From the NCBI GenBank assembly GCA_965140415.1, contig OZ223209.1:293974-357973 (forward strand): a stretch of 64,000 nucleotides of DNA, in the 5' to 3' direction. The notes under the pieces are model-generated. The model was not told the origin of the DNA. It worked only from the letters and a program-made list of their open reading frames with translations, and made no database searches. Every line of letters begins with the position of its first letter. Positions within the stretch are counted from its first letter, which is position 1. Below, piece by piece: positions 1,473 to 60,231 of this stretch. A program made the position numbers and the translations under genes. Origin of the DNA: Myxococcota bacterium. GTDB taxonomy: Bacteria; Myxococcota_A; SURF-8.

Positions 1473-4265
1473 ATGAAAGAGAAACGCTGGTTGGTAAAGG
1501 TTGTGTTGTTGTGTCTGGCTCTGATGCTATTCGGCTGCGGTTCCGGTTCCGATGCGGACCCCGCAGACGGTGATAGCGATACGGATGCGGCGACCGGCAG
1601 CTGTCTGCCCTTCTGCATGCGCGTGGTGGCTTGTGCGCCGGAAGTCGGCATCACGACCGCAAAATGCACCGCAGCCTGTGAAGATCCGGAATACTGGTTC
1701 TCCACCGTGGGCGGCACGGCCAGCTATTGCTGTGTCGAAAAGAGCGATTGCGACAGCTTCGTCGCCTGCCTGTTGGGCACGGATGGCTACCTCTGCGGGC
1801 AGACCGGCCCCTCCGGCGACTGCACCAACGGCGAGATGAGCTGCCAGGGTGACAGCACCATCGAATGCGAAAACGGCTCCTGGGCCGATCCCATTCCCTG
1901 CGGCGAAGGCAAAACCTGCAAAGATGGCGACTGCGTCGACAAAACCGTAACCAACGATTGCGAAGCGGACGTCGAAACCCGTTGCAAGGACGAAAACACC
2001 CTGCAAACCTGTAATGCCACCGGCGACGGTTGGGTGGATTCCGCCTGCGGCGACGATCTGTTCTGTTCCAACGGCCAGTGCGTCTCCCAGTTGTGCGAGC
2101 CGGAAACGGAAAAAAGCTGCGACGATCAGGGGCGCGTGGTGACCTGCAACGCCGCCGGCGATGGCTGGGAAGATCCCACCGAATGCTTGCAGGGTCAACG
2201 CTGCTTCGAAGGCCGCTGCATCAACGAGGGCGAATGGGTCTGTGAACCGCTTACGGAAACCCGCTGCACCGACGACGATCCGCCACGCCTGCAAACCTGC
2301 AACGCCGACGGCAGCGACTGGTCCACTCCGTTGAACTGCCCGGCGGGCACCGAGTGCATCGTCGATCATTGCGCCGAAGCGGCCTGCGAGCCGGGTGAGG
2401 ATTTCCGCTGCGCCGAGGATGGCCGCATTCAGTGGTGCAACACTTCCGGCAACGGTTACCTGCCGCCGGAAGACTGCCCCAGCGGCCTGACCTGCGTTAC
2501 CAATTCCGAAGACGGCTGCGGCGTTTCTACCAGTGTCTGTACGCCCAATGAATATTACTGCGAGGATCTGCACAACATCAAGCAATGCAACGCCACCGGC
2601 GACGGCTACCTGACGGGCCTGACTCCCTGCGATCCGAACTCGGTCGAAGGCAAGGAATGCCACAACGGCGAATGCATGGATCTGTGCGACATGGCCGAAG
2701 CCACCGATTCCTACATCGGCTGCGAATACTGGCCCATCGCCCTGCCCAATTCAGTGGACGACGACTTCAAAGAAGGTCAGGAATCCGAATTCGCGGTTGT
2801 CGTGGCCAATACCAACGAGGATTATACGGCGACCATCACCATTGAAAAAGGCATTTTCAACAAGGTCGTAACGATCCAGCCCGGCCAGCAAAAGACCATC
2901 CGCCTGCCCTACGATGACCGCGTGAACAGCTACAAGGCCAATTCCGCGTTTCGTTTGAGTTCCACCGTACCAGTTACGGTTTACCAGTTCAATCCGCTCA
3001 CCGCCGTGATCGGCTCCACCTACGCCAATACCAATGATGCTTCGCTGTTGTTACCGACTCACGTACTCGGCGAAGAGTATATGGTTATGAACTATCGCAC
3101 CTGGTATCGCTCCGCCGACAACATCACGTTTTCTGCCAGTAATTCTTTCTACACCATCGTCGGCACCGAAACCGGTACAACCGTTACGATCAAGCCTTCC
3201 GGTGAGACGGCTTCCGGCAGCGGCGTGCAGGCCATGTCACCGGGACAGGAATACACGTACACCTTGAATCGCGGTGAAGTATTGCAAGTGATCAGCAGTT
3301 CGGACAGCAGCCTGATCGATCAGAGTACCTGCGTGACGGAATCGAGTCCCTATACCACGATTAAGCAATACTGCCTGGGGCAGGAACTGACCGGAACGGA
3401 AATTCATACCAGCGCACCGGTGGCGGTTTACGCCGGTAACGAGTGCGAATTCGTGCCACATTATCGCTGGGCCTGTGACCATCTGGAACAGCAGATGTTC
3501 CCGACCGAATCCTGGACCACCCAGTATATCGCCGCCAAAATGCACACGCCGCTAAATACCGGCAGCACCGAGCAACCTAACCTGTATAAGATCGTCGCCT
3601 TGCAGGATGAAACGGTCATCACTACCGTACCGGAAGTCAATAACCAGTCCAGCCCCTTCCACAATCAGGCCTGTACCGGTCCTTTGGATCGCGGCGAGAG
3701 CTGCATCATCGAAACGCGCGACGATTTCATCCTGATGACCAACGCCGAGCATCCGGTGATGATCGGCCAGTTTTTAGTTGGACAGGATTTCTGGGGTATC
3801 AATTTAGTACCCTGTTACGCCGGTTGCGGTAGTGGTGAAATCTGTTACGATGCCGGTGGCTATTGCGTGCCTTCCTGCCAGGGTGGGTTACAATGCCCCG
3901 AAGGTAAGATCTGTCTGAACAACATGTACTGTATGGGCTACGGCGATCCGGCCTTCGTGCTGATTCCGCCGGTGGAACAATATCGCAAAGAATACGTATT
4001 CCTGGTACCCAGCACCTACGCCATCGATTATCTGACGCTGTTGACGACAAATCCTTCGGTGGAAATCACGCTGGACGGTTCGCCCTTGCAGACCAGCTTC
4101 ACGCAGATCGGCAGCCGCAACGCCTATCGCATGGAGATGAGCATCTCCGATGGTGCGCACACCTTAAGCGCAAGCAGCAAGGTGGGCTTGATGGTTTACG
4201 GCTACGACGCATATGTCTCTTACGCCTATCCGGGCGGACTGGATCTGTCGCTGGTGATCTACTAG
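1473..4265 (+). CDS. Cys-rich tandem-repeat lipoprotein with C-terminal beta-rich domain (IgGFc-binding/vWD-like)
   Basis: Signal peptide and lipobox (LMLFGCGSG), Asp-rich linker, then ~8 tandem ~40-aa repeats (C..C.D...TCNA.GDGW.D..C..G.C). C-terminal ~500 aa ends VYGYDAYVSYAYPGG, which I recall as IgGFc-binding-like. Confidence 0.55.
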   Translation: MKEKRWLVKVVLLCLALMLFGCGSGSDADPADGDSDTDAATGSCLPFCMRVVACAPEVGITTAKCTAACEDPEYWFSTVGGTASYCCVEKSDCDSFVACLLGTDGYLCGQTGPSGDCTNGEMSCQGDSTIECENGSWADPIPCGEGKTCKDGDCVDKTVTNDCEADVETRCKDENTLQTCNATGDGWVDSACGDDLFCSNGQCVSQLCEPETEKSCDDQGRVVTCNAAGDGWEDPTECLQGQRCFEGRCINEGEWVCEPLTETRCTDDDPPRLQTCNADGSDWSTPLNCPAGTECIVDHCAEAACEPGEDFRCAEDGRIQWCNTSGNGYLPPEDCPSGLTCVTNSEDGCGVSTSVCTPNEYYCEDLHNIKQCNATGDGYLTGLTPCDPNSVEGKECHNGECMDLCDMAEATDSYIGCEYWPIALPNSVDDDFKEGQESEFAVVVANTNEDYTATITIEKGIFNKVVTIQPGQQKTIRLPYDDRVNSYKANSAFRLSSTVPVTVYQFNPLTAVIGSTYANTNDASLLLPTHVLGEEYMVMNYRTWYRSADNITFSASNSFYTIVGTETGTTVTIKPSGETASGSGVQAMSPGQEYTYTLNRGEVLQVISSSDSSLIDQSTCVTESSPYTTIKQYCLGQELTGTEIHTSAPVAVYAGNECEFVPHYRWACDHLEQQMFPTESWTTQYIAAKMHTPLNTGSTEQPNLYKIVALQDETVITTVPEVNNQSSPFHNQACTGPLDRGESCIIETRDDFILMTNAEHPVMIGQFLVGQDFWGINLVPCYAGCGSGEICYDAGGYCVPSCQGGLQCPEGKICLNNMYCMGYGDPAFVLIPPVEQYRKEYVFLVPSTYAIDYLTLLTTNPSVEITLDGSPLQTSFTQIGSRNAYRMEMSISDGAHTLSASSKVGLMVYGYDAYVSYAYPGGLDLSLVIY

Positions 4266-39850: not shown

Positions 39851-40516
39851 ATGAAAATCGAGAATGGCTGTTACGTTCGCTTTAATTATCTGTTCCGCAA
39901 TTCGGAAGGCGAAATCGTTTACGAAAGCAATGTGGACGAGCCGACCTGGTACATTCACGGGCAGAATCTGATTCTGGGAGCCTTCGAAGAAGCCATGGCA
40001 GGGCACGAGCAGGGCGAACGCCTGACGATCGATCTGAAACCGGAAGATGCGTTCGGAGAGCGGCGCGACGAATTGATCAGCGAAGTAACTTTCGATATGT
40101 TACCGGAGGGTTTCGAACCGAAGCTGGGCGAAATTCTGGAAGCCACCAACGATGACGGCATGGTGCTTCCGATGCAGATTACCGAAGTCAAAGAGAACAG
40201 CGTCATCTTGGACGGCAACCATCCGCTGGCCGGAATGACGCTCGTTTGTGACTTGATGGTCGAGGAAGTGCGCGAAGCCACGAGTGAGGAAACCGCGGAA
40301 ATGGATCGCCTGATGGCCTCGCCCGGTTCGCAGGAAGAGGAAAGCGATGAAGCCTCGCCGTTGATCATGGAATTCGGCGGAGACGACGAAGAGGGTACGG
40401 AAGTAGACACTCCGACGTGCAGCACCTGTTCCGGCTGTGCGCCTGTGGTGATCAAAGGAGATAAAGACAAAGGTGGTTCGGGCGGTTGCGGCCCGGACGG
40501 ATGTTGTGGCTGTTAG
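39851..40516 (+). CDS. slyD: FKBP-type peptidyl-prolyl isomerase, SlyD-like with Cys-rich tail
   Basis: FKBP core with insert-in-flap region, acidic linker and C-terminal CSTCSGC...GGCGPDGCCGC tail. Confidence 0.65.
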   Translation: MKIENGCYVRFNYLFRNSEGEIVYESNVDEPTWYIHGQNLILGAFEEAMAGHEQGERLTIDLKPEDAFGERRDELISEVTFDMLPEGFEPKLGEILEATNDDGMVLPMQITEVKENSVILDGNHPLAGMTLVCDLMVEEVREATSEETAEMDRLMASPGSQEEESDEASPLIMEFGGDDEEGTEVDTPTCSTCSGCAPVVIKGDKDKGGSGGCGPDGCCGC

Positions 40517-40576: not shown

Positions 40577-41284
40577 ATGAAAGCGTGTAGACATTTCATG
40601 GTGGTTTTAATGGGATGCCTGGTGCTGAATCTGTCTGGCGTCGCGTGGGCACAGCAAACGGATGCCGCTGCCCCACCTGCTGAAGAATCTGGTGCCGATG
40701 CGGTGGAACAACCGACCGAACAAGCGGTTGAAAAGACTACCGATACCGCCGAAGCAAAAGAAGCCGAGGCCACTAAGGAAGGTTGCGCAGAAGCACAAGA
40801 CTGCAAAGAAGATATGACGATGGATCTCGGCGTTCCCGGCGAACCGCCGTTGCCGGGTGCCGTTGCCGTACAGGCAGAGCAGCCGGAACCGGAAGTCACG
40901 ACGTTGCGCACGCATGGTGGACGCCTGATCGGCTCCGGCGTGTTTTTCGCGATTGCCGGTGGCGTGTTGACCGGTGTGGGTGCTGACCAGAATGCCGATG
41001 AAGCCTTGTATGCCGGAATCAGCGGGCTGGGAATAGCAGCCATTCTAGCGGCGGTCGGTATTCCGTTGTTCGTGATGAATCCGGAAGAAGACGTGCAAAA
41101 AGAAGAAATGGTTACCTTGCAGTCGAAACCGAAAAACGGCAACGTGCAGGTTCTGGAAATGGACGATTTCGAGGCGCAATTGCGCTACGTTGCAAGCCAG
41201 CAGACGGCACCCAAGCCGGTTTTGAGCATCGCTCCCGCTATTTCGCCGGAATCCGCCGGACTTTTCATGCAGCTCGGATTTTAA
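40577..41284 (+). CDS. Hypothetical secreted/membrane protein
   Basis: Signal peptide (AWAQQ), acidic low-complexity region, Gly-rich hydrophobic segment; no recognisable domain. Confidence 0.4.
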   Translation: MKACRHFMVVLMGCLVLNLSGVAWAQQTDAAAPPAEESGADAVEQPTEQAVEKTTDTAEAKEAEATKEGCAEAQDCKEDMTMDLGVPGEPPLPGAVAVQAEQPEPEVTTLRTHGGRLIGSGVFFAIAGGVLTGVGADQNADEALYAGISGLGIAAILAAVGIPLFVMNPEEDVQKEEMVTLQSKPKNGNVQVLEMDDFEAQLRYVASQQTAPKPVLSIAPAISPESAGLFMQLGF

Positions 41285-41539: not shown

Positions 41540-42697
41540 ATGAGCAAGCGCTTGCATCTGGATTGCACGGGCGGCATTGCCGGAGATATGTTTATTTCCG
41601 CTCTCACCGGCTTGCCCATGGATATCGAAGCCTGGTGGGAGATCATGGATCGTCTGCCGCTGCCGGAATGGGAAGCGTCGTTTCCGGAGCGGTCGGAATG
41701 CGGCTTGATGTGCCGTACTTTGAAATTGACGTTGCCCGGCGGCCCCGGCGACCCGCGCGACGTGCGCTCGATCCGGCAGACCATCTTACAAGCCAAGCTG
41801 CCTTCCGAAGTGGAAGAGAATTCGTTGGCGCTATTGCAACTGCTGGCCGAAGCCGAAGGCAAGGTGCATGGCGAAGAACCGGATCTGGTTCATTTTCACG
41901 AACTGGCCGGATTCGATTCCATCTTCGATCTGGTCGGTGCGGCGGCGGCGGTGCATCTGCTGCAGCCGGTGACGATCAGTTGCTCGTCGTTGCCATTGGG
42001 ACACGGTACGGTGCAGACCGCGCACGGCGAATTGCCACTGCCGGTTCCGGTGGCGCTGGAACTGCTCGATGGCCTGCCGGTGCATCCGGTTGATATTGCA
42101 GGTGAAACCATTACCCCCACCGGGGCGGCCATTGCGCGTCATTTTGCAGGTTCCTTTTCCACTTTTGCCCAAGGTGCGATTCTGGCTCACGCCCAAAGCG
42201 CCGGGACAAGAAAGAATGCGCGTATTCCCAACATGCTGCGCGCCATCTTATTGGAGGAAGACGCCGGGGATTCGGAAACGCTGTGGGTATTGGAATGCAA
42301 CCTGGACAATATGAATCCCGAACATACGGATTTTCTTTTCGCCCGCCTGTTCGAAGCCGGGGCGCTGGATGTCTGGCTCAGTTCGATTCAGATGAAGAAA
42401 AACCGCCCGGCCCAGACCGTTTCCGTTTTAGTGCGCCCGAATCTGGCCGACGAGATGCAGCGGCTGCTCTACCTGCACACACCGACAATCGGTGTTCGGC
42501 GCTTTGCGGTGCAGCGTCATGCTCTTAAACGCAGCGAGGAGTTCCGTGAAACTCCATTGGGGACCGTGCGCGGAAAGCGCATCGACGCACCAGACGGTTC
42601 ACGCTGGATGCCGGAATACGATGAACTGGCTCGTATCGCCTCAGAGCGCGGCTGGTCGATTCGTCAGGTGTTGGAAGCGCTTTCAGCCACGAGCTAA
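41540..42697 (+). CDS. larC: LarC-family nickel insertion protein (DUF111)
   Basis: N-terminal LHLDCTGGIAGDMFISAL, central HFHELAGFDSIFDLVGAAAA and TPTGAAI blocks. No larB or larE seen in the window. Confidence 0.7.
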   Translation: MSKRLHLDCTGGIAGDMFISALTGLPMDIEAWWEIMDRLPLPEWEASFPERSECGLMCRTLKLTLPGGPGDPRDVRSIRQTILQAKLPSEVEENSLALLQLLAEAEGKVHGEEPDLVHFHELAGFDSIFDLVGAAAAVHLLQPVTISCSSLPLGHGTVQTAHGELPLPVPVALELLDGLPVHPVDIAGETITPTGAAIARHFAGSFSTFAQGAILAHAQSAGTRKNARIPNMLRAILLEEDAGDSETLWVLECNLDNMNPEHTDFLFARLFEAGALDVWLSSIQMKKNRPAQTVSVLVRPNLADEMQRLLYLHTPTIGVRRFAVQRHALKRSEEFRETPLGTVRGKRIDAPDGSRWMPEYDELARIASERGWSIRQVLEALSATS

Positions 42698-43720
42698 AGG
42701 CGGGTTTTCGAATGATGCATAGCGGGAAGCGGCGGACTCGAAACGGTCGTCCAGTCCCGCTGCCGCCTGCAAGGCACGTCGTAGGAAATACCCACGCGCG
42801 GCTTCATCCTTTCTCATATGAAAAAACAACGCCGTCTGAACTCCGAAAATGAATCCGTAATAGTTCAGTTTGCTTTTGTATTTGGGCGGGAAAGAGCGCT
42901 GCGCCTCGTAGCCGTCGTGAATGAGTTGATAGAAATCCGCTTCGTGTACGTGGGTGTATAGCGAGCAGATATCGACCAGTGGAGATCCGGCGGCGGCCTG
43001 GGTGAAGTTGACGAACCCGGTGATTTTTTTCTGCTCTCGATCTACCCATAGATTGGCGAACTGCAAGTTATTGTGCGTCAGTCCCAACGATTCCCCGATC
43101 ATCACCGATTTAGATTTCTCACCGAATTCCAGTAGTTGCTGGACCAACCCTTCATCGAGCATCTGGCTGGCCTGCACGTGTTTCATGACCGTATCCGCCA
43201 TCAAACCAAAATACTTCTGCCAGGGGCCTGGATGCACCCCGTTGCCTTCGACTGAAATCAGCCCGGCACCTTTGACCTGAATGGAATGGATACGCGCCAG
43301 AAAGCGGCCAATCTGTTCTCCGATTTTCTCTTTTTCATCATTCGAAAACGAATCACCTGCGGCATAGCTGCGTGCAATCGGTTCGCCGTCGATTTTCTGT
43401 ACAACCAAAGCGGGGCGCTCCACAAACTCGCTGTTGGACTCTACCCCAATCGGCCTGGTCAGCGGAACGTGCAGGTTCAAATCCAACGTGGAACGATTGA
43501 AGCGATCCAGTTGATCGAGAATGTTGTATTCCCGGTGAAGGATGGTAAAGTCACGGTTTTTCGGTTCCGCTTTCAGAATTTTGACCCAATAATCACCAAC
43601 CTCGTAGGTATCGCAGGCCGGATCGATCGGAACGCCATGAACCTGTTCCGGATCGGTTTCAAAATCCGATTTGAATTTCTGTATGAGTGAGATCAGATTT
43701 TCGGCGTTCGCTTGACTCAT
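42683..43720 (-). CDS. Aminoglycoside-phosphotransferase-fold protein, possibly a pseudokinase
   Basis: ATG at 43720 with GGAGGAA SD. Kinase-like fold; catalytic-loop position reads THNNLQFANLW and the metal-binding position reads FVNFT (Asn where Asp is expected). 3' end overlaps larC convergently by 15 nt. Confidence 0.5.
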   Translation of the reverse strand: MSQANAENLISLIQKFKSDFETDPEQVHGVPIDPACDTYEVGDYWVKILKAEPKNRDFTILHREYNILDQLDRFNRSTLDLNLHVPLTRPIGVESNSEFVERPALVVQKIDGEPIARSYAAGDSFSNDEKEKIGEQIGRFLARIHSIQVKGAGLISVEGNGVHPGPWQKYFGLMADTVMKHVQASQMLDEGLVQQLLEFGEKSKSVMIGESLGLTHNNLQFANLWVDREQKKITGFVNFTQAAAGSPLVDICSLYTHVHEADFYQLIHDGYEAQRSFPPKYKSKLNYYGFIFGVQTALFFHMRKDEAARGYFLRRALQAAAGLDDRFESAASRYASFENPPLARG

Positions 43721-43998
43721 GGGTTCCTCCATCGGCGTATTGATCGATGCTGAAACTGTAACAGAGAATGGGCGTTGACGCACCTTCTTTTCGCAGTTGA
43801 ACATCTGCGTTACACCAAACCCACAGCGGCAATTGACACGCATTCCCGGTCATGTTACCTTTATGTGTAAGGCGTATCATCACGGTTTTGTATTGCACCG
43901 AATCGCCAGGAATTCCGAGCCGTTTCCGCTCTGCAAGTGGAGCGGTCCTTTGTTTTGCCTTTCGAACCATTCGGCAGGCACGCCACGATGAGGATAGC

Positions 43999-44211
43999 AT
44001 GAGTGACGAGCAAAAAGACGACCTGCAAAAAGAGAAGAAACTGCCGGCGTTCGAAAACAACCGGGATTTACTGCTGTTTCTGTACGTTCTGATCAAGCAG
44101 AACCGCAAGTGGTGGCTGTTGCCCTTCTTGTTCGTGCTGGGAATTTTAAGTCTCTTCGTCAGCTTGACCGGCAATACCTCGCTGTTGCCCGCCATTTACG
44201 CCCTGTTCTAG
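43999..44211 (+). CDS. DUF5989-like small membrane protein
   Basis: ATG at 43999 with GAGGA SD; 70 aa with charged N-terminus and hydrophobic tail ...NRKWWLLPFLFVLGILSLFVSLTGNTSLLPAIYALF, matching the DUF5989 pattern as I recall it. Confidence 0.45.
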   Translation: MSDEQKDDLQKEKKLPAFENNRDLLLFLYVLIKQNRKWWLLPFLFVLGILSLFVSLTGNTSLLPAIYALF

Positions 44212-44225
44212 GTCGGGATTCAGAA

Positions 44226-45698
44226 ATGGGTCAAGCTCCGACGCCAAGGCGTTTTCTCTTTATCCGCACCTTCAAGTTTCTCAAAGCCGGAGGACCGATT
44301 CCCCCGTTGGGGTTGTTGTACCTGGCTGCCTGTCTACGCAAACGCTTTGGTGACGACTTCCAGTTGCGCTTGGTCGATACCGGTTTGCTCGGGTTGGACG
44401 GCGTTAAACAGGCCATCACGGAATTCAACCCGGATTACATCGGTATCAGCAGCATGAGTTGTGAAGAGGATTATCTCTTCGAGCTTTCCCGCTTTTGCAA
44501 GCAACAACACCCTGATTCTACAGTGATTGTCGGTGGACCACATGCCACCGTAAGAAAGGAAGCGCTGCTTTCGGAACGCTCGCTGGATTATCTCGTTTTC
44601 GGCGAAGGCGAGGAAACGCTGGTGGAATTATTGGAAGCGCTGGAAAACAAGAGCGATCCTTTGCAAGTGGCCGGAATCGCGGCGCGAACGGAACAGGGAG
44701 TGCAGACCAGTGAACAGCGTGCTCCGATTGAAGATCTGGATGCCTTGCCCTTTCCGGCCTGGGATCTGATCGATGCCAGGGAATACGCCCGTTTTCCCAA
44801 CTGGAACGGCTCGCTGAAAAAAGAATTCTACGCCGTGCTGGCCTCCTCGCGCGGTTGTCCCTACGGCTGTTTCTTTTGTCACAATCTGTTCGGTAAAACC
44901 GTGCGCGCCCGCTCGCCGGAAAGCGTCTTTGCCGAGTTGAAGTGGCTGCACGAAGAATACGGCGTGGAAGAAGTCCACATCCTGGACGATATCTTCAATT
45001 TCAACGCCGCACGTGCAACTCGTGTAATGGAACTGGTGCTGGAATCGAAGATCGATTTCGCCTTTGCGTTTCCAAACGGTTTACGCGCCGACATCATGAC
45101 CGAAGAACTGATCCGCATTCTCGCCAAAGCCGGAACCTATAAAATCAACTATGGTTTCGAAACGGCTTCTCCCCGCCTGCAAAAGCTGATCGGGAAAAAC
45201 CTGAACGTGGAGAAAGCGGCGCGAACCTTCGAGTTGACCAGCCGGGCGGGTATTATTACCGGGGCTTATTTCATGCTGGGTTTTCCCACGCAGACGAGAG
45301 CGGAAATAGAGCATACCATCGACTTCGCCGCTCATTCCGCCCTGGATGTCGCTTACTTTTTCAAGGCGACGCCGTACCCTGGCAGTGGATTCTTTAACGA
45401 GGTCTTCGAGCAATCGTCCGATGAAGCTTCCGGGTTGAAGCAGATCGAGAATTACGGCGACTACCACTTCTATTCCGTCTCGCGTTCTTATGGCGAAGTG
45501 GATACAAACGAGTTGAACCTGTTGATGTTGCAGGCGCAACACCGGTTTTATTTCCGTTTCAGCCGCATCTGGCGCGTGTTCTGGAAAAGCAGCAAGAAAA
45601 TGGAATTTCTGCATAACCTGTTGGAAGTCTTCGCGCTGTTGATTCAATCGTTTTTACTGAAACATCTGCTGGCAAGCGGCAAGGAGAAGACGCCGTGA
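44226..45698 (+). CDS. B12-binding-domain radical SAM protein
   Basis: N-terminal cobalamin-binding-like domain (PLGLLYLAACL...VIVGGPHAT) and radical SAM cluster motif GCPYGCFFC. Starts 14 nt after the DUF5989-like gene. Confidence 0.8.
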   Translation: MGQAPTPRRFLFIRTFKFLKAGGPIPPLGLLYLAACLRKRFGDDFQLRLVDTGLLGLDGVKQAITEFNPDYIGISSMSCEEDYLFELSRFCKQQHPDSTVIVGGPHATVRKEALLSERSLDYLVFGEGEETLVELLEALENKSDPLQVAGIAARTEQGVQTSEQRAPIEDLDALPFPAWDLIDAREYARFPNWNGSLKKEFYAVLASSRGCPYGCFFCHNLFGKTVRARSPESVFAELKWLHEEYGVEEVHILDDIFNFNAARATRVMELVLESKIDFAFAFPNGLRADIMTEELIRILAKAGTYKINYGFETASPRLQKLIGKNLNVEKAARTFELTSRAGIITGAYFMLGFPTQTRAEIEHTIDFAAHSALDVAYFFKATPYPGSGFFNEVFEQSSDEASGLKQIENYGDYHFYSVSRSYGEVDTNELNLLMLQAQHRFYFRFSRIWRVFWKSSKKMEFLHNLLEVFALLIQSFLLKHLLASGKEKTP

Positions 45699-45868
45699 AG
45701 CGCATTCTGGCGTATCTAATCTGCCTGTTCGCCTTGCTGTTGCCCTGGCGGCTGCGGGTGGCCTTTGCCGGGTTATTGGGTTGGATTACCCAGGGGATTT
45801 ACGGCCTGCTCTATGCCGTGATGCGCATTCTGGTTAAAAACCTTCGTAACGACTCGGACAGCACATGA
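45695..45868 (+). CDS. Small hydrophobic protein (57 aa), translationally coupled; not in the ORF track
   Basis: GTG start overlaps the radical SAM stop (GTGA), AAGGAGAAG SD; MKRILAYLICLFALLLPWRLRVAFAGLLGWITQGIYGLLYAVMRILVKNLRNDSDST; its stop overlaps the next ATG (ATGA). Confidence 0.4.
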   Translation: MKRILAYLICLFALLLPWRLRVAFAGLLGWITQGIYGLLYAVMRILVKNLRNDSDST

Positions 45869-46755
45869 CCAAAAGCCGTCAGATCGCCATTCTGTTTTCA
45901 GGCGGTACGGATTCGACTGCTGCCACAGCGCTGCTTGCCGAGCAATATGACCGGGTGCATCTGCTTTCCTATTTTCATTCCGGTTCGGCGCAGCCGAAAA
46001 ACGCCGCCACCAACATTCCCAAGTTGGTCGAGTTGTACGGCGACAAGTTCGAGCATCACATTTTTTCCACCGACAAGTTATTTCGCCATTTCACCTACGA
46101 GCGCTATTTCAAAAACCTGCGCCGGTACGGCTTGTTCAACCTGACGAGTTGCGGTTTCTGCAAACTGGCCATGCACGTGCGCACGCTGGTTTATTGCCTG
46201 GATCATGATATTATCGAAGTTGCAGACGGTGCCAACCGGCACATGTCGCACTTTCCGGCACAGATGAAAGCCATGCTCGATCCGCTGCGTGAACTGTACG
46301 CCCATTTTCACATTTCGTTTGAAAATCCGGTGTTCGAATACGAGAACCCGCGTGAAATCGATTGGATACACAAGCTCGGCCTGGCGGATCTGGCGCAATC
46401 GTCCTCCAAAAAGAAGCTTGCTGAAAAAGAGGAAGCAGCTGAGGTTTCTGCAAAAACCACCGGCGATTTGCTACTGGAGCGCGGTATTCTTTCCAACGCG
46501 AATGTCAAAGGGACGGCGACCGACCGCAAGATGCAGGCGCGTTGCTTTCAACTGACGCTGCTAAACGCCTTTGCTTTAGGCTACTTCATTCCAACAAAGG
46601 GCATGGATGCCTACCAGCAGGGCATCTCGCGCTTTTATACGGAAAAGATTTCCGTGGCGGAAGAGTTGTTACAGGACTATCGGGAGCGAGGAAACGAAAG
46701 CCGTTTGGCCGGGCTAGTCGAGCGTAATGATCTTGGGGAACATGATGCCTCGTAA
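45865..46755 (+). CDS. PP-loop superfamily ATP pyrophosphatase (QueC-like N-terminus)
   Basis: N-terminal IAILFSGGTDSTAAT (SGGxDS PP-loop) and DRVHLLSYFHSG; Cys motif SCGFCK. Subfamily not assignable by eye. Confidence 0.6.
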   Translation: MTKSRQIAILFSGGTDSTAATALLAEQYDRVHLLSYFHSGSAQPKNAATNIPKLVELYGDKFEHHIFSTDKLFRHFTYERYFKNLRRYGLFNLTSCGFCKLAMHVRTLVYCLDHDIIEVADGANRHMSHFPAQMKAMLDPLRELYAHFHISFENPVFEYENPREIDWIHKLGLADLAQSSSKKKLAEKEEAAEVSAKTTGDLLLERGILSNANVKGTATDRKMQARCFQLTLLNAFALGYFIPTKGMDAYQQGISRFYTEKISVAEELLQDYRERGNESRLAGLVERNDLGEHDAS

Positions 46756-48031
46756 AACCTCGGCAGACACCACGATGTCCTATCCGGTTTTAGGAAAACT
46801 GCTGGCTTTGGGATTCGGCCTGTTTCTGCTGGTCGTACTGGAACTGGTTGCCAGACTCGCCCTGCCGGAAAGCCACCTGGATCGGATTCTGGATATTTTA
46901 CAGCAGGACGCAACCCTCTTCTGGCGACAGCGACCCGAATTGAATACGATGTTCGCCGGAACCGAAGTCACGACCAATGAAATCGGGCTGCGCATTGCAC
47001 CTGACTCGAACGCATCGATTTTGAAGAAGCAGGCAGAAGTTCCGCGCATCGTCTGCATGGGCGCTTCGCCGACCTTCGGTTGGGGAGTTACGGAGAAACA
47101 AGCCTACAGCCGCCGGCTTGAACCGCTGCTTTCCGAAAAACTGGGGAAGCCGGTCGAAGTCATCAACGGCGGGATGATCGGGTATTCCTCGCTGCAAGGT
47201 GCGCGTTTTTTCGAGCGGGAAATCCTGCCATTGCAACCGGATTGGATCACGGTCTCCTACGTTATCAACGATGTGGACAAATACCGCTTTTTCCGCACGG
47301 ATGGCCGCCCGGATCGTGAACTGAAACCGCTGGATGAAACGGGCGTCTGGCTGCGGAATCTGCTGATGAAAAGTGCGTTTTATCGACTGTATGAGCGCAG
47401 CCTGCATGTGATGCTGCAACGGCGCGGACAGTTGGACGGAAAACCGCTGCGGCTTTATCGCCCCGGCGAGGTGCGTGTACCACCGCAAGATTACGTAAGC
47501 AACCTGGCGACCTTTGCCGATCTCTGCAAGCAGCACCATATCGGCCTGCTGTTTGTTGCCATGCCCATCAATCTGCCTGTTGGAAAAAAGCTGTCGGCCA
47601 AAGAGCGACAACGAGCGTCGGAGTTTTTGCAGGAAGGTCTGCGCCTGGCGGCTGCCGATCGGTGCGAGCAGGCGTTAGAGCCTTTACAGAAAGCGGTTGA
47701 ATTGAATCCCGACGCCAGCGAGGCGCACTACCAGCTTGGTGTCTGCTATTCCGAACTGGGTAAGGAGCCGGAGGCGCGCGCGGCTTTCGACGCCGCCATG
47801 CTCAGCGAGGCTCATCGCTGTGGAGCGGATGGACTGCGCTACAACGACCTGCTACGCGAATTTGCCGGGCAACGACGCATTCCCCTGGCGGATGTCGCAA
47901 GCGTCTTTAGAAACGAACAGGAAGAATTGTTTCTGGTGCAGGCCGGAGACCCGATTCACCCCAACGCCAAAGGCCACGCCATCATCGCCCGACTGTTGGC
48001 CGAGACGCTGTCGAACTTCATGACACGCTGA
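46742..48031 (+). CDS. SGNH-hydrolase-like protein with C-terminal TPR repeats
   Basis: N-terminal signal anchor; RIVCMGASPTFGWGV and NGGMIGYSS blocks; DPIHPNAKGH (DxxH); TPR-like repeats in the C-terminal ~100 aa. Start uncertain (46727, 46742 or 46775). Confidence 0.5.
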   Translation: MMPRKTSADTTMSYPVLGKLLALGFGLFLLVVLELVARLALPESHLDRILDILQQDATLFWRQRPELNTMFAGTEVTTNEIGLRIAPDSNASILKKQAEVPRIVCMGASPTFGWGVTEKQAYSRRLEPLLSEKLGKPVEVINGGMIGYSSLQGARFFEREILPLQPDWITVSYVINDVDKYRFFRTDGRPDRELKPLDETGVWLRNLLMKSAFYRLYERSLHVMLQRRGQLDGKPLRLYRPGEVRVPPQDYVSNLATFADLCKQHHIGLLFVAMPINLPVGKKLSAKERQRASEFLQEGLRLAAADRCEQALEPLQKAVELNPDASEAHYQLGVCYSELGKEPEARAAFDAAMLSEAHRCGADGLRYNDLLREFAGQRRIPLADVASVFRNEQEELFLVQAGDPIHPNAKGHAIIARLLAETLSNFMTR

Positions 48032-57015: not shown

Positions 57016-60000
57016 TTACTGGCAGTAACTCTTTTCCGGATAGGCCGCGCAGCAATGCGCCTGCACGTCGAAAGCGGTCACGTCTTCCCATAAGCCCAGG
57101 TTGTAGAAGTAGTCGCACAGATGCTCGGAACGGCAATAGGGCACAAAGCTTTCATCCGTCTCGGCACGGGTGTGCATCGGGGGTGGTGTGAAACCCGGTT
57201 CTCCATCCAGTTCGATGAAAATCGGATTGCTTACGGCGAACGATGGCGTCCAGGGATAGGTCGGATACAGATCCTCCATGGCGTCGCCAAAAGCGAAGAC
57301 CACCGCGTAGGCGTCGTGGCCGTTGGTGCGGCTGACGTTGGTAGCAAAGCTGCGATTCATGCGCACCGGAGCGGAAACGCTGCCGGGAACCATGTGGTTA
57401 CTGTCCATCGGGTAGCCGTTGATGCAGACATAGATGTGATTGACTTTGACGTAAGGCGGCGCCTGTACCTTGACGTTGAACTCCAGGCGCACCGAATTTT
57501 CCGTACCCGGCGGCGTGTAGGTGTCGCCCGGCAAGGCATTGCCTAAACGCATGGTGACGGTGGGACCGGTGGTCACGATGTTATGTCCCTGCCCCAGACG
57601 CAGAATCTGATCGAGGGCTGAATTGGGCGAAAGCGTTTCCTGATCCGAAATCACCAAGTTGATCGGTGAGCCGATGTGCCGGAAGTCTTCTTTGGAAGCG
57701 GCTTGCAGCTCGCTATTGGCAGTGATCGGTTTGTAGTAGCCCTGATGCAATAAAGAGAGCCAATCCTGAATGGCCGCATACGTATAAGCAAAGGGCTCCT
57801 CGCCGTTGATCACCTCCATGGTGTCCCAGTTTTCCATTTGGCTGCGCACCAGAAACTGCAAGGAATCGATGCCCTCGAAAGGATCGTAACCTTCCGATTT
57901 TCCAAACACATCGAAAAAGGCTGGAGCGTCTTCCACGCCGCGCGGACGGCTGATCTGTACGAAGCTTGCGCCGTAGTTTTCTTTCAACTGCTGCCAGATT
58001 TCTCCCGGCGGCTGCAAGCCGGCATACGTGCCGTTTTCCTGATCGTAGGCCGTAGACCAGACCCCGGTATATTCCGGGCTATCCTGCGGTTTCAGTACAT
58101 TTACGCCAAGATATTGGCCGTTATTGGAAGTGATCTGCATGCCCGGTACCCAATGCACTGGATGCGCACCGCCGCTGGCCCCGGTTTCGGAAAGCGCCTC
58201 GGTATAGTCGCCGATGGTCTCCGCGTCGGAGCCGACAAACACTTCCACGCCCTCTGCGCGCAGGTTGTTCACGCGCTCGGTTTTCGTCATATCCGAATAA
58301 AGCGAAGCGTTACTGTGAATGTTCAGATCCGCCGTATGCAGGTACATGCCCGCTTCGCCGGGCGGCATTTCGATCGTGGGATCGACGATGCGGCGTAACA
58401 CGACGTTTCGTGGTCCCTGCTTTTCGCCATCGCCCAGATACGCGCGATAGGTGTGCTGCTCCGCGCAGACCGAATAATGGATGCCGCAGGAAACCACTAC
58501 CGAATACTGGCTGTTGACGGCCCCTCCCAACGGCAGACGCACCTGAATTTCTCCCGGCGTTTCGGTGGTAAAGACCGTTCGTTCAATCGGAATGTTGCCC
58601 GGCATGGAGCCGGTCGGACCGAAGTCCAGTAAACCATGATAAAAGTCCACCCGCGCTCCCAGCGGGAAAGTGCCTTCGTCGCGCTCTTCATTCACCGAAA
58701 TGGTTACGACCGCGCCACGCGGCGGAGCGGGAACTTCCAGCCCCTGCAAGGATTCTTCCTCTACCACCGTGACGTCCAGTGCATCGGAACGTTCGCCCCA
58801 AGGAGCGACAGTAACCAGGTGCCAGTCTCCGGCGGGCAACTGCAATTCGAATGCGCCCTGCGCGTCGAGGTAGCTGCTGGCGTGGATGTAGTCGTGATAT
58901 TTCGGGTTTTCCGCGCTGCCGCCGATTTTTCGCGTTTCGATGGCGATGATTTCCACTTCCTGCGCCTGTAAATCCACACGGTCGCTGAAATCCACCGTCC
59001 CAGAAACCGAGCTTGTTGCAACAACTTTGTTCGGAAGGCTTTCTTCCCGGAAAGCCTGCATATCGGCAAAGACCTGTTCCGCCGGACCTTCGCTGATCAT
59101 GAATACCAGCGATTGCGTGTTGGGGGCGATCTCGGTAACGGCAAAGTCTTGATATCCAAGGATAAATGCCGGTTTGGGCAGCAGCATCATGGAGAACAGG
59201 TTTTTGGCTTCACCGGAAGTGACCGCATAGGAAAAGTCCGATTTGCTGAAGGCGTAATAGGGATGATAGTAGCCCTGGAAACTGCGTCCGCCATCGAAAA
59301 TGGCGATGCCGTCCGTATCCTGGCCCGGATAAAAGGGAGTCAGGCTCGAATCGGTCATGACGCCCAACCCGGGACGCACGTATTCCAGTGTCAGATCCAC
59401 CGGGTCGATATCGATTTCTGCGGTTTCCGTACCCGCCTCTTCCATATCCAGATCGCCATCGGCGTCCTGCGGCTGCTGATAGATGGAAACCGTCATGTCC
59501 ATGCGTAGGTAGGTGGCATCGGCATCCAGGTAATAATCCACGGTTAATGCCACCTTGGGATTGATGGGCGCGGCGAGCATGTTGTCTACCTGCTGAATCG
59601 GCCAGTCGATGCCGCTGGCGCGCACGTGTGCCGGGAAACCGCCCGAACCATTGTGAATCAGTTCGATTTTATCGGCGCGGAACATATGGATATTGCCGTC
59701 GTAGGGGAGCACGTCGGTATTGGAGCTGATCACCGGGAAAGCGTCGAACAGCAGGTCTTCGGTGCGCGTATCGCCGTTACTGTCGAGCAGCACCGCGTCC
59801 AACAACGAACCGCCGGTCAAATTGAAACCGCGACCAGGCCCGGCTGCGGCGATGACGAAGGCTGCCTTGCTGTTATACAGTTTGAAATCGCCCACCTGCC
59901 CCTGGCCATCGGAGGCCGGAAGCTGGCTGCGTTCGCCCACCACACCCGCACGGACTTCGCCGTCCTCCAGTGCGTCGCCGACATTCAAAGGCGTGGTGTC

Positions 60001-60231
60001 GTTGGGATCGCCAAGATCCGTATCGGTGTCGAGATCGCCGTCGTTCTCCGAATCCGCGTCTTCGACATCCGCGTTTTCATCGTCGCCGTCGGTGATGACG
60101 TCGTCGCCATCGGTGGGCGGCTGATAATAGGTCGTATCGTCGTTACAGGCGAAAACGAAGAGCAACACGACAAGAAGAACGATCGCTGCAAAAGGATAGT
60201 ACAACGTTCCTTTTAATTGAGAATGGATCAC
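57016..60231 (-). CDS. Large secreted lipoprotein, hypothetical (possible metal-dependent hydrolase-like region)
   Basis: Signal anchor and lipobox (FVFACNDD); long D/E-rich linker; 1071 aa; HTADLNIHSNASLYSD segment weakly resembles PHP/amidohydrolase metal-site motifs; Cys-rich C-terminus. Confidence 0.45.
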   Translation of the reverse strand: MIHSQLKGTLYYPFAAIVLLVVLLFVFACNDDTTYYQPPTDGDDVITDGDDENADVEDADSENDGDLDTDTDLGDPNDTTPLNVGDALEDGEVRAGVVGERSQLPASDGQGQVGDFKLYNSKAAFVIAAAGPGRGFNLTGGSLLDAVLLDSNGDTRTEDLLFDAFPVISSNTDVLPYDGNIHMFRADKIELIHNGSGGFPAHVRASGIDWPIQQVDNMLAAPINPKVALTVDYYLDADATYLRMDMTVSIYQQPQDADGDLDMEEAGTETAEIDIDPVDLTLEYVRPGLGVMTDSSLTPFYPGQDTDGIAIFDGGRSFQGYYHPYYAFSKSDFSYAVTSGEAKNLFSMMLLPKPAFILGYQDFAVTEIAPNTQSLVFMISEGPAEQVFADMQAFREESLPNKVVATSSVSGTVDFSDRVDLQAQEVEIIAIETRKIGGSAENPKYHDYIHASSYLDAQGAFELQLPAGDWHLVTVAPWGERSDALDVTVVEEESLQGLEVPAPPRGAVVTISVNEERDEGTFPLGARVDFYHGLLDFGPTGSMPGNIPIERTVFTTETPGEIQVRLPLGGAVNSQYSVVVSCGIHYSVCAEQHTYRAYLGDGEKQGPRNVVLRRIVDPTIEMPPGEAGMYLHTADLNIHSNASLYSDMTKTERVNNLRAEGVEVFVGSDAETIGDYTEALSETGASGGAHPVHWVPGMQITSNNGQYLGVNVLKPQDSPEYTGVWSTAYDQENGTYAGLQPPGEIWQQLKENYGASFVQISRPRGVEDAPAFFDVFGKSEGYDPFEGIDSLQFLVRSQMENWDTMEVINGEEPFAYTYAAIQDWLSLLHQGYYKPITANSELQAASKEDFRHIGSPINLVISDQETLSPNSALDQILRLGQGHNIVTTGPTVTMRLGNALPGDTYTPPGTENSVRLEFNVKVQAPPYVKVNHIYVCINGYPMDSNHMVPGSVSAPVRMNRSFATNVSRTNGHDAYAVVFAFGDAMEDLYPTYPWTPSFAVSNPIFIELDGEPGFTPPPMHTRAETDESFVPYCRSEHLCDYFYNLGLWEDVTAFDVQAHCCAAYPEKSYCQ

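Follow-up and report, generated by a model that had tools for sequence, protein, structure and literature searches.

A rare clade of APH/CAK-fold proteins from Myxococcota-like bacteria with asparagine at the metal-binding position: a predicted pseudokinase family

We describe a predicted pseudokinase encoded on the minus strand of a 64,000-nucleotide stretch (hereafter the window) of contig OZ223209.1, positions 293,974 to 357,973, from the Myxococcota bacterium assembly GCA_965140415.1. The protein adopts the fold of the aminoglycoside phosphotransferases (APH) and related CAK kinases, and asparagine occupies both the position of the catalytic aspartate and that of the metal-binding aspartate. 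It belongs to a tiny, sharply bounded clade in which the asparagine at the metal site is invariant while the catalytic position varies from lineage to lineage. Judged from these sequence comparisons, the clade is most likely a new, very rare and uncharacterised family of a known kind, namely a kinase-fold pseudoenzyme.

Asparagine at the catalytic and metal-binding positions

The gene and the elements of its product on which the argument rests are the following.

42683..43720, minus strand: gene for the APH/CAK-fold protein, a predicted pseudokinase of 345 aa
43580..43582, minus strand: K47 codon, equivalent of the beta3 lysine, kept (register of the profile and MAFFT alignments)
43529..43531, minus strand: E64 codon, equivalent of the alphaC glutamate, kept (aligned to E60 of APH(2'')-IVa)
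43211..43240, minus strand: family motif G161-V-H-P-G-P-W-Q-K-Y170, a hairpin into the helical (substrate-binding) subdomain
43052..43075, minus strand: catalytic-loop equivalent H216-N217-N218-L-Q-F-A-N223, at the HxDxxxxN position in alignments to APHs
43007..43009, minus strand: N238 codon AAC, at the metal-binding 'DFG'/IDF aspartate position, aligned to the D of GIVDFT and GIIDFG

An original prediction, made by eye from the sequence alone, had assigned the protein to the aminoglycoside phosphotransferase fold and had placed asparagines at its catalytic-loop and metal-binding aspartate positions. The fold assignment is borne out by the Pfam APH model (PF01636; 54.4 bits against a cutoff of 23.2, E=1.9e-14, residues 48-259), by alignments to proteins of known structure, by an AlphaFold2 model computed from a 28-sequence alignment (mean pLDDT 94.6, pTM 0.91) and by Foldseek, whose top match is APH(2'')-IVa (E about 3e-12, TM 0.6-0.7). 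The model has the bilobal kinase-like fold of the solved APH/CAK structures, and its nearest structural relatives are all small-molecule kinases; the protein is a generic member of the CAK fold, to which none of the solved relatives is especially close. More specialised models did not claim it: there was no match to the fructosamine kinase (FN3K) model PF03881 at E<=1, and the choline kinase model PF01633 (17.9 bits against a gathering threshold of 29), the bacterial spore kinase model TIGR02904 YsxE (11 bits against 263.6) and the NCBIfam resistance models APH(7'')-Ia (22.2 bits against 640) and APH(2'')-Ie/IVa (21.5 against 600) all remained below their cutoffs. Because the resistance models score only about 22 bits against cutoffs of 600-640, the protein is not a resistance enzyme.

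The register of the two critical motifs is consistent across methods. In phmmer comparisons with the PDB, LTHNNLQFANLWVD pairs with FVHGDLHGTNIFVD of APH(7'')-Ia and with LIHNDFSSDHILFD of APH(2'')-IVa, and GFVNFTQ pairs with GIVDFTD and GIIDFGD of the same two enzymes. A family profile gives the same motif register (E about 1e-10 to 1e-11), as do MAFFT and hmmalign alignments against the 145 nearest APH homologues outside the family, which served as the outgroup. In none of these four agreeing alignments does an aspartate of the window protein fall at position 218 or 238, and the predicted pair of asparagines is thereby upheld. The stretch THNNLQFAN comprises residues 215-223, in which H216 is encoded at 43073-43075 and N218 (codon AAC, 43067-43069) stands in place of the catalytic aspartate of the HxDxxxxN (Brenner) motif; FVNFT comprises residues 236-240. 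By residue count in the profile alignment, where N218 is set against an HND, the counterparts of N218 and N238 in APH(2'')-IVa are D197 and D217, the aspartates with which that enzyme carries out catalysis and binds Mg, respectively. Thus, neither of the aspartates found in catalytically competent CAK/APH kinases is present.

The remainder of the kinase apparatus is largely kept. The beta3 lysine-alphaC glutamate pair is present as K47 and E64, and the glutamate position is occupied by E in 16 of 18 family sequences; the register of the lysine is less certain, being K47 in the profile and MAFFT alignments and K50 in the pairwise phmmer alignment, where the gap is placed otherwise. H216 and N223 of the catalytic loop and the structural Asp250 are also retained. 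By sequence, the closest solved structures are APH(2'')-IVa and APH(7'')-Ia, at only 13-19% identity. With them the protein shares the bilobal CAK/APH fold, a catalytic loop beginning H-N/G, a structural histidine (in ARIHSI), Asp250 after the activation segment, the beta3 lysine and the alphaC glutamate; it differs from APH(2'')-IVa in having asparagine in place of both D197 and D217. The fructosamine-3-kinases (e.g. 3F7W) and the type II homoserine kinase (2PPQ) have both aspartates and are active as small-molecule or protein-glycation kinases; the window protein is set apart from them further by its lack of a Pfam FN3K match and by clade-specific residues throughout its cleft.

Conservation within a small clade

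Orthologues of the protein are exceedingly rare, with about 18 distinct sequences among 5.8 billion. A search of these 5.8 billion clustered proteins recovered 13 orthologue clusters at 37-47% identity, to which a profile search added only two further, more distant clusters. When 1.84 billion representatives were scanned exhaustively with HMMER, six matches had E<1e-29, after which the values fell to 1e-12 for ordinary APH-family proteins, and pattern scans found three loci in 185,579 species-representative genomes and five in 241 million metagenome records. Each member has a single domain and a length of about 340-349 aa, and those with a named source come from Myxococcota, Myxococcales or "Deltaproteobacteria" metagenome-assembled genomes (MAGs).

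The two asparagines behave very differently across this clade. Position 238 is Asn in all 19 family sequences, against Asp in 143 and Asn in none of the 145 outgroup proteins, and the asparagine at the metal site is a shared derived character of the clade. Position 218, by contrast, is Asp in 11 of the 19 (138 of the 145 in the outgroup) and N, S, Q or E in the others: N in the window protein and in P0011/P0162, S in P0002, Q in P0015 and P0017, and E in P0016 and P0164. Most orthologues accordingly read HND, and the rest HNN, HNS, HNQ or HNE, always with H216 and N217 invariant beside the variable residue. Whether the pair of D-to-N changes is conserved in orthologues thus has a divided answer: the VNF asparagine is invariant, whereas the HNN asparagine is confined to the window protein and one other lineage. 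The replacements at position 218 lie on separate branches of a neighbour-joining (NJ) tree, a simple tree without support values, and if Asp was ancestral they would imply at least five or six independent changes. The catalytic base is thus under relaxed constraint. In P0015 the beta3 lysine (to C) and the alphaC glutamate (to A) have been lost as well, and the clade-specific motifs are kept. We also noted a partial member at a contig end of an uncultured Myxococcales MAG (L010, 8001-8690) that reads LTHNEFHPAN, with Glu at the catalytic-base position; its closest relatives, P0012 and P0013, have Asp there.

Among the residues that are invariant in the clade and rare or absent in the 145 outgroup proteins are T38, W45, R63, N75, T78, G165, P166, E210, N217, N238, Y311 and A320; the stretches H163-W167 and R275-P278 are likewise clade-specific. 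W45 lies two residues before K47, and G165 and P166 fall within the GVHPGPWQKY motif, which as a whole is invariant or near-invariant in the family. The clade additionally has a conserved C-terminal tail (residues 322-340) that the outgroup proteins lack. By homology with APH structures, several of the clade-specific residues would map to elements lining the nucleotide/substrate cleft: beta2, beta3, the catalytic loop, the DFG position and the hairpin.

The gene appears to be maintained. Every orthologue gene is intact and full-length, 27 columns are invariant across 15 orthologues at only 28-47% identity, and the nonsynonymous divergence (dN) of the closest pair is 0.14; synonymous divergence (dS) is saturated in every pair, so that the usable statement is the qualitative one that dN << dS. 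The comparison points to a functional gene under purifying selection rather than one in decay.

Binding or phosphotransfer

A pseudokinase has been defined at the sequence level as a protein of the kinase fold without one or more of the beta3 lysine, the HRD aspartate and the DFG aspartate (PMC12599244). With N218 and N238 in a confidently predicted kinase fold, the window protein has lost two of these three defining residues, in keeping with the pseudokinase signature that the original prediction had read from the loss of both aspartates. We consider it moderately probable that it is a non-phosphorylating pseudokinase retained for binding a ligand or a partner, with both its catalytic inactivity and its binding function deduced from sequence patterns. 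Phosphotransfer would not be the selected function because the metal ligand is invariantly lost and the catalytic base has been lost repeatedly beside an invariant H216-N217; a binding function is suggested in its place because the uncharged metal site is itself invariant and the new cleft residues are conserved under purifying selection.

A course of events can be proposed on this basis. The present protein would be a soluble, single-domain, bilobal member of the CAK/APH fold that has ceased to transfer phosphate. The ancestor of its clade would have exchanged the Mg2+-binding 'DFG' aspartate for asparagine. The catalytic-base aspartate, then free of constraint, could have been replaced repeatedly, by asparagine in the case of the window protein. 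Selection would instead have acted on a remodelled, strictly conserved cleft, composed of T38 and W45 on beta2/beta3, H216-N217, N223, N238, the GVHPGPWQKY hairpin and the C-terminal tail. The protein might bind a partner protein, a small molecule resembling a substrate, or a nucleotide on which no productive Mg2+ chemistry takes place, and might serve as a sensor, regulator or scaffold.

Several observations weigh against this view of the family. The carbonyl oxygen of asparagine is able to bind Mg2+, and in all kinases the asparagine of the catalytic loop does so. The catalytic aspartate is kept in 10 of 18 members, the beta3 Lys/Arg and the alphaC Glu in most, and three have Glu at the position of the base; because catalytic residues persist in so many, the ancestral protein or some of the members could be weak or atypical enzymes. 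The losses at position 218 were counted on an NJ tree of the simple kind noted above. Finally, we considered W45 as a sign of an occluded ATP pocket and rejected it: a bulky residue could fill the adenine pocket, yet in APH(3')-IIIa the aromatic Tyr42, likewise two positions before the beta3 lysine, stacks on the adenine. W45 would thus allow nucleotide binding and gives no ground for supposing that the pocket is occluded.

These points lead to the main rival explanation, that the clade consists of atypical active enzymes, either with N223, N238 and the phosphates of the nucleotide together coordinating one metal, or with metal-independent catalysis as in CASK, so that the family would carry out phosphotransfer or another nucleotide-dependent reaction on a small molecule, with the window protein as a weakened or regulatory variant. 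It would account for the retention of HND, the beta3 K/R, the alphaC E and the catalytic-loop N in most members, for the strict conservation of the substrate-side hairpin and cleft residues, as expected with a defined substrate, and for the fact that the nearest structural relatives are small-molecule kinases throughout. It fits poorly, however, with the N, S or Q found at the position of the base in at least four lineages, including that of the window protein, where the neighbouring residues are invariant, and with P0015, which has lost Lys, Glu and Asp together. Furthermore, a D-to-N change at the metal position is the standard kinase-dead mutation, and none of the 145 nearest APH homologues, presumed active because of their canonical residues, has asparagine there. 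We therefore regard an active enzyme as unlikely, though less so for the members that read HND.

There are precedents for a non-catalytic role in proteins with degraded kinase sites. The closest of the same fold are the bacterial spore kinases (BSKs) of the spore coat, among which CAK-fold pseudokinases such as YutH and BSKC6 are known (PMC2860764); in the BSKs catalytic residues have been lost several times independently, the structural His and Asp are kept, and a non-catalytic function has been inferred (PMC2860764). The present clade resembles them in keeping the CAK/APH fold and in the repeated, independent catalytic losses within one family. It differs in its distribution, in Myxococcota-like bacteria as against the spore coats of Firmicutes, and in that the hallmark of BSK pseudokinases is a lost catalytic Asp whereas this family is defined by an invariant change from Asp to Asn at the metal site. 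The loss of residues with preservation of the fold also recalls HER3 and the JH2 domain of JAK2, which have an Asp-to-Asn change in the catalytic loop, and STRADalpha and CASK, which are without the DFG aspartate. Some of the eukaryotic-type pseudokinases still bind nucleotide, with no cation or a single one, and act allosterically. Our literature search found no report of a natural 'NFG' motif in pseudokinases.

Genomic context and implications

Three further features concern the start of the gene and its convergent neighbour.

43725..43730, minus strand: GGAGGA resembling a Shine-Dalgarno site, 4 nt ahead of the ATG at 43720, read from the sequence
41540..42697, plus strand: larC, for a CTP-dependent nickel-insertion cyclometallase, convergent with the kinase-fold gene (3e-112 for Pfam Ni_insertion; the NCBIfam models LarC1 and LarC2 both pass their cutoffs)
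42683..42697, both strands: convergent overlap of the 3' ends of the kinase-fold gene and larC, 15 nt

The mechanically called minus-strand open reading frame (ORF) extends from 43843 to 42683 (386 aa). The ATG at 43720 is the credible start within it, with GGAGGA upstream and a start shared with the N-termini of all the orthologues, and the resulting 345-aa product is identical to the database protein P0001. The overlap with larC on the opposite strand, also part of the original prediction, is real; it is a minor detail, reaching no further than the four C-terminal residues of each protein, none of them conserved. Between 42300 and 44400 no sigma-70-like promoter was found and terminator-like sites occurred only at chance level; the sigma-54 -24/-12 pattern likewise appeared at chance-level frequency, and never upstream of the kinase-fold gene. 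Rfam and tRNA scans of the window returned no RNA genes. PADLOC gave no defence-system match for the kinase-fold protein, and membership of such a system was rejected on that ground.

One flank of the gene carries, all on the plus strand, dapA, dapB, an aminotransferase gene, folK, a transaldolase/FSA gene, a gene for a SlyD-like peptidyl-prolyl isomerase (PPIase), one for an unknown protein, and larC. The divergent flank begins with a plus-strand cluster (43852-48031) of a small ORF with a DUF5989 C-terminus, a B12-binding radical SAM protein, a PP-loop ATPase-like protein and a GDSL esterase with TPR repeats, and continues with a histidine kinase and a sigma-54 activator. For the radical SAM protein the best NCBIfam matches (BchE, ApyD, P-methyltransferases) are far below their cutoffs, and the PADLOC candidate PDC-M51A scores 3e-19; because its listed GTG start (44109) overlaps the DUF5989 ORF, the true start is probably further downstream. 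Elsewhere in the window, 57016-60231 (minus strand) is a 1071-aa ORF with no Pfam match at E<=1e-5, and 1473-4265 (plus strand) encodes a 930-aa protein with a strong IgGFc_binding match (4e-66) that adjoins a DUF5122 beta-propeller protein.

The kinase-fold gene looks monocistronic, and the genes around it have housekeeping or regulatory functions. None of its co-directional neighbours is conserved across the 12 orthologue loci with context, and operon context was therefore rejected as a guide to what the protein does. The window and L001 each have a B12-radical-SAM gene upstream; the two are not orthologues, their identity being 22% and limited to the core, and the adjacent proteins of 296 and 377 aa are unrelated. 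Some neighbours do recur: an M23 peptidase and a DtxR-type repressor upstream in L001, L013 and L015, a cyclophilin-type PPIase and a DUF362/4Fe-4S protein downstream in L003, L004 and L013, and FUR after larC in L001 and L006. Such recurrence of unrelated neighbours looks like residual synteny within one bacterial lineage.

A further point of context to consider is larC itself, which is the convergent neighbour in four of the 12 loci (the window, P0007, P0008 and P0009). The genes are 6-36 nt apart in the three orthologue loci and overlap only in the window. Around larC in the window lie two further genes of note. The SlyD-like FKBP peptidyl-prolyl isomerase (39851-40516, plus strand; Pfam FKBP_C; NCBIfam PRK10737, 4e-24) is encoded two genes upstream, and its C-terminal tail, rich in Cys and Gly (...CSTCSGC...GGCGPDGCCGC), is of the kind with which SlyD proteins bind metal; between this gene and larC, 40577-41284 (plus strand) encodes a 235-aa protein with no Pfam family and a weak CopL-like N-terminal match (E=1e-4). 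No larA, larB or larE was recognised among the approximately 45 window ORFs scanned, and larC here looks like an orphan; for the PP-loop ORF (45865-46755) there were only weak matches of the QueC/Asn-synthase type, and the idea of a Lar cluster around larC was rejected.

It is conceivable that the kinase-fold protein works with LarC, for example by binding a nucleotide or an intermediate of the nickel-pincer cofactor or by regulating nickel insertion, with the convergent pairing kept by selection. The pairing is found in the window and three other lineages although the APH-like proteins of these lineages are only 41-45% identical to that of the window and the LarC proteins about 51%; the genes on both outer flanks vary and the pair alone is conserved; and a SlyD-like metallochaperone is encoded close by. 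On the other hand, the genes are convergent and hence not co-transcribed, larC is not nearby in eight of the 12 loci, the gaps of 6-36 nt leave hardly any room for rearrangement breakpoints, so that the pair can persist neutrally, the recurrence of the unrelated M23 peptidase, DtxR and FUR fits residual synteny, and none of larA, larB and larE was seen in the window. For these reasons, namely convergence, the unpaired lineages, the other recurrent neighbours and the neutral protection afforded by a short gap, we assign a functional link to LarC a low probability. More doubtful still is the specific proposal that the APH fold has been repurposed, with its conserved, uncharged Asn-Asn site and a Trp-lined pocket, to bind some other ligand or a metal, and that it acts on or senses an intermediate in the synthesis of the nickel-pincer nucleotide cofactor together with LarC; if true, it would add an unrecognised accessory factor to the pathway of that cofactor. 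Least probable of all is the view that the gene is what remains of an APH-type kinase, in decay or without function; the loss of two catalytic residues and the extreme rarity of the family might speak for this view, but it is contradicted by a full-length reading frame free of frameshifts and stops, a strong ribosome-binding site, the 27 invariant columns over 15 orthologues, a dN far below dS and the very confident predicted fold.

If a non-phosphorylating, ligand- or partner-binding protein is the correct reading, a previously undescribed pseudokinase family would be added to the CAK/APH branch of the kinase superfamily, in which few non-catalytic members have been documented beyond the spore-coat BSKs. 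The rarity of the family limits its wider impact unless a link to LarC or to another pathway is demonstrated. In terms of annotation, neither "aminoglycoside phosphotransferase" nor "resistance gene" is a label that should be given to proteins of this kind. The clade would also offer a natural example of the order in which a kinase site may be dismantled, with the metal-binding aspartate lost first and fixed as asparagine, the catalytic base subsequently drifting, and new residues of the cleft becoming invariant.

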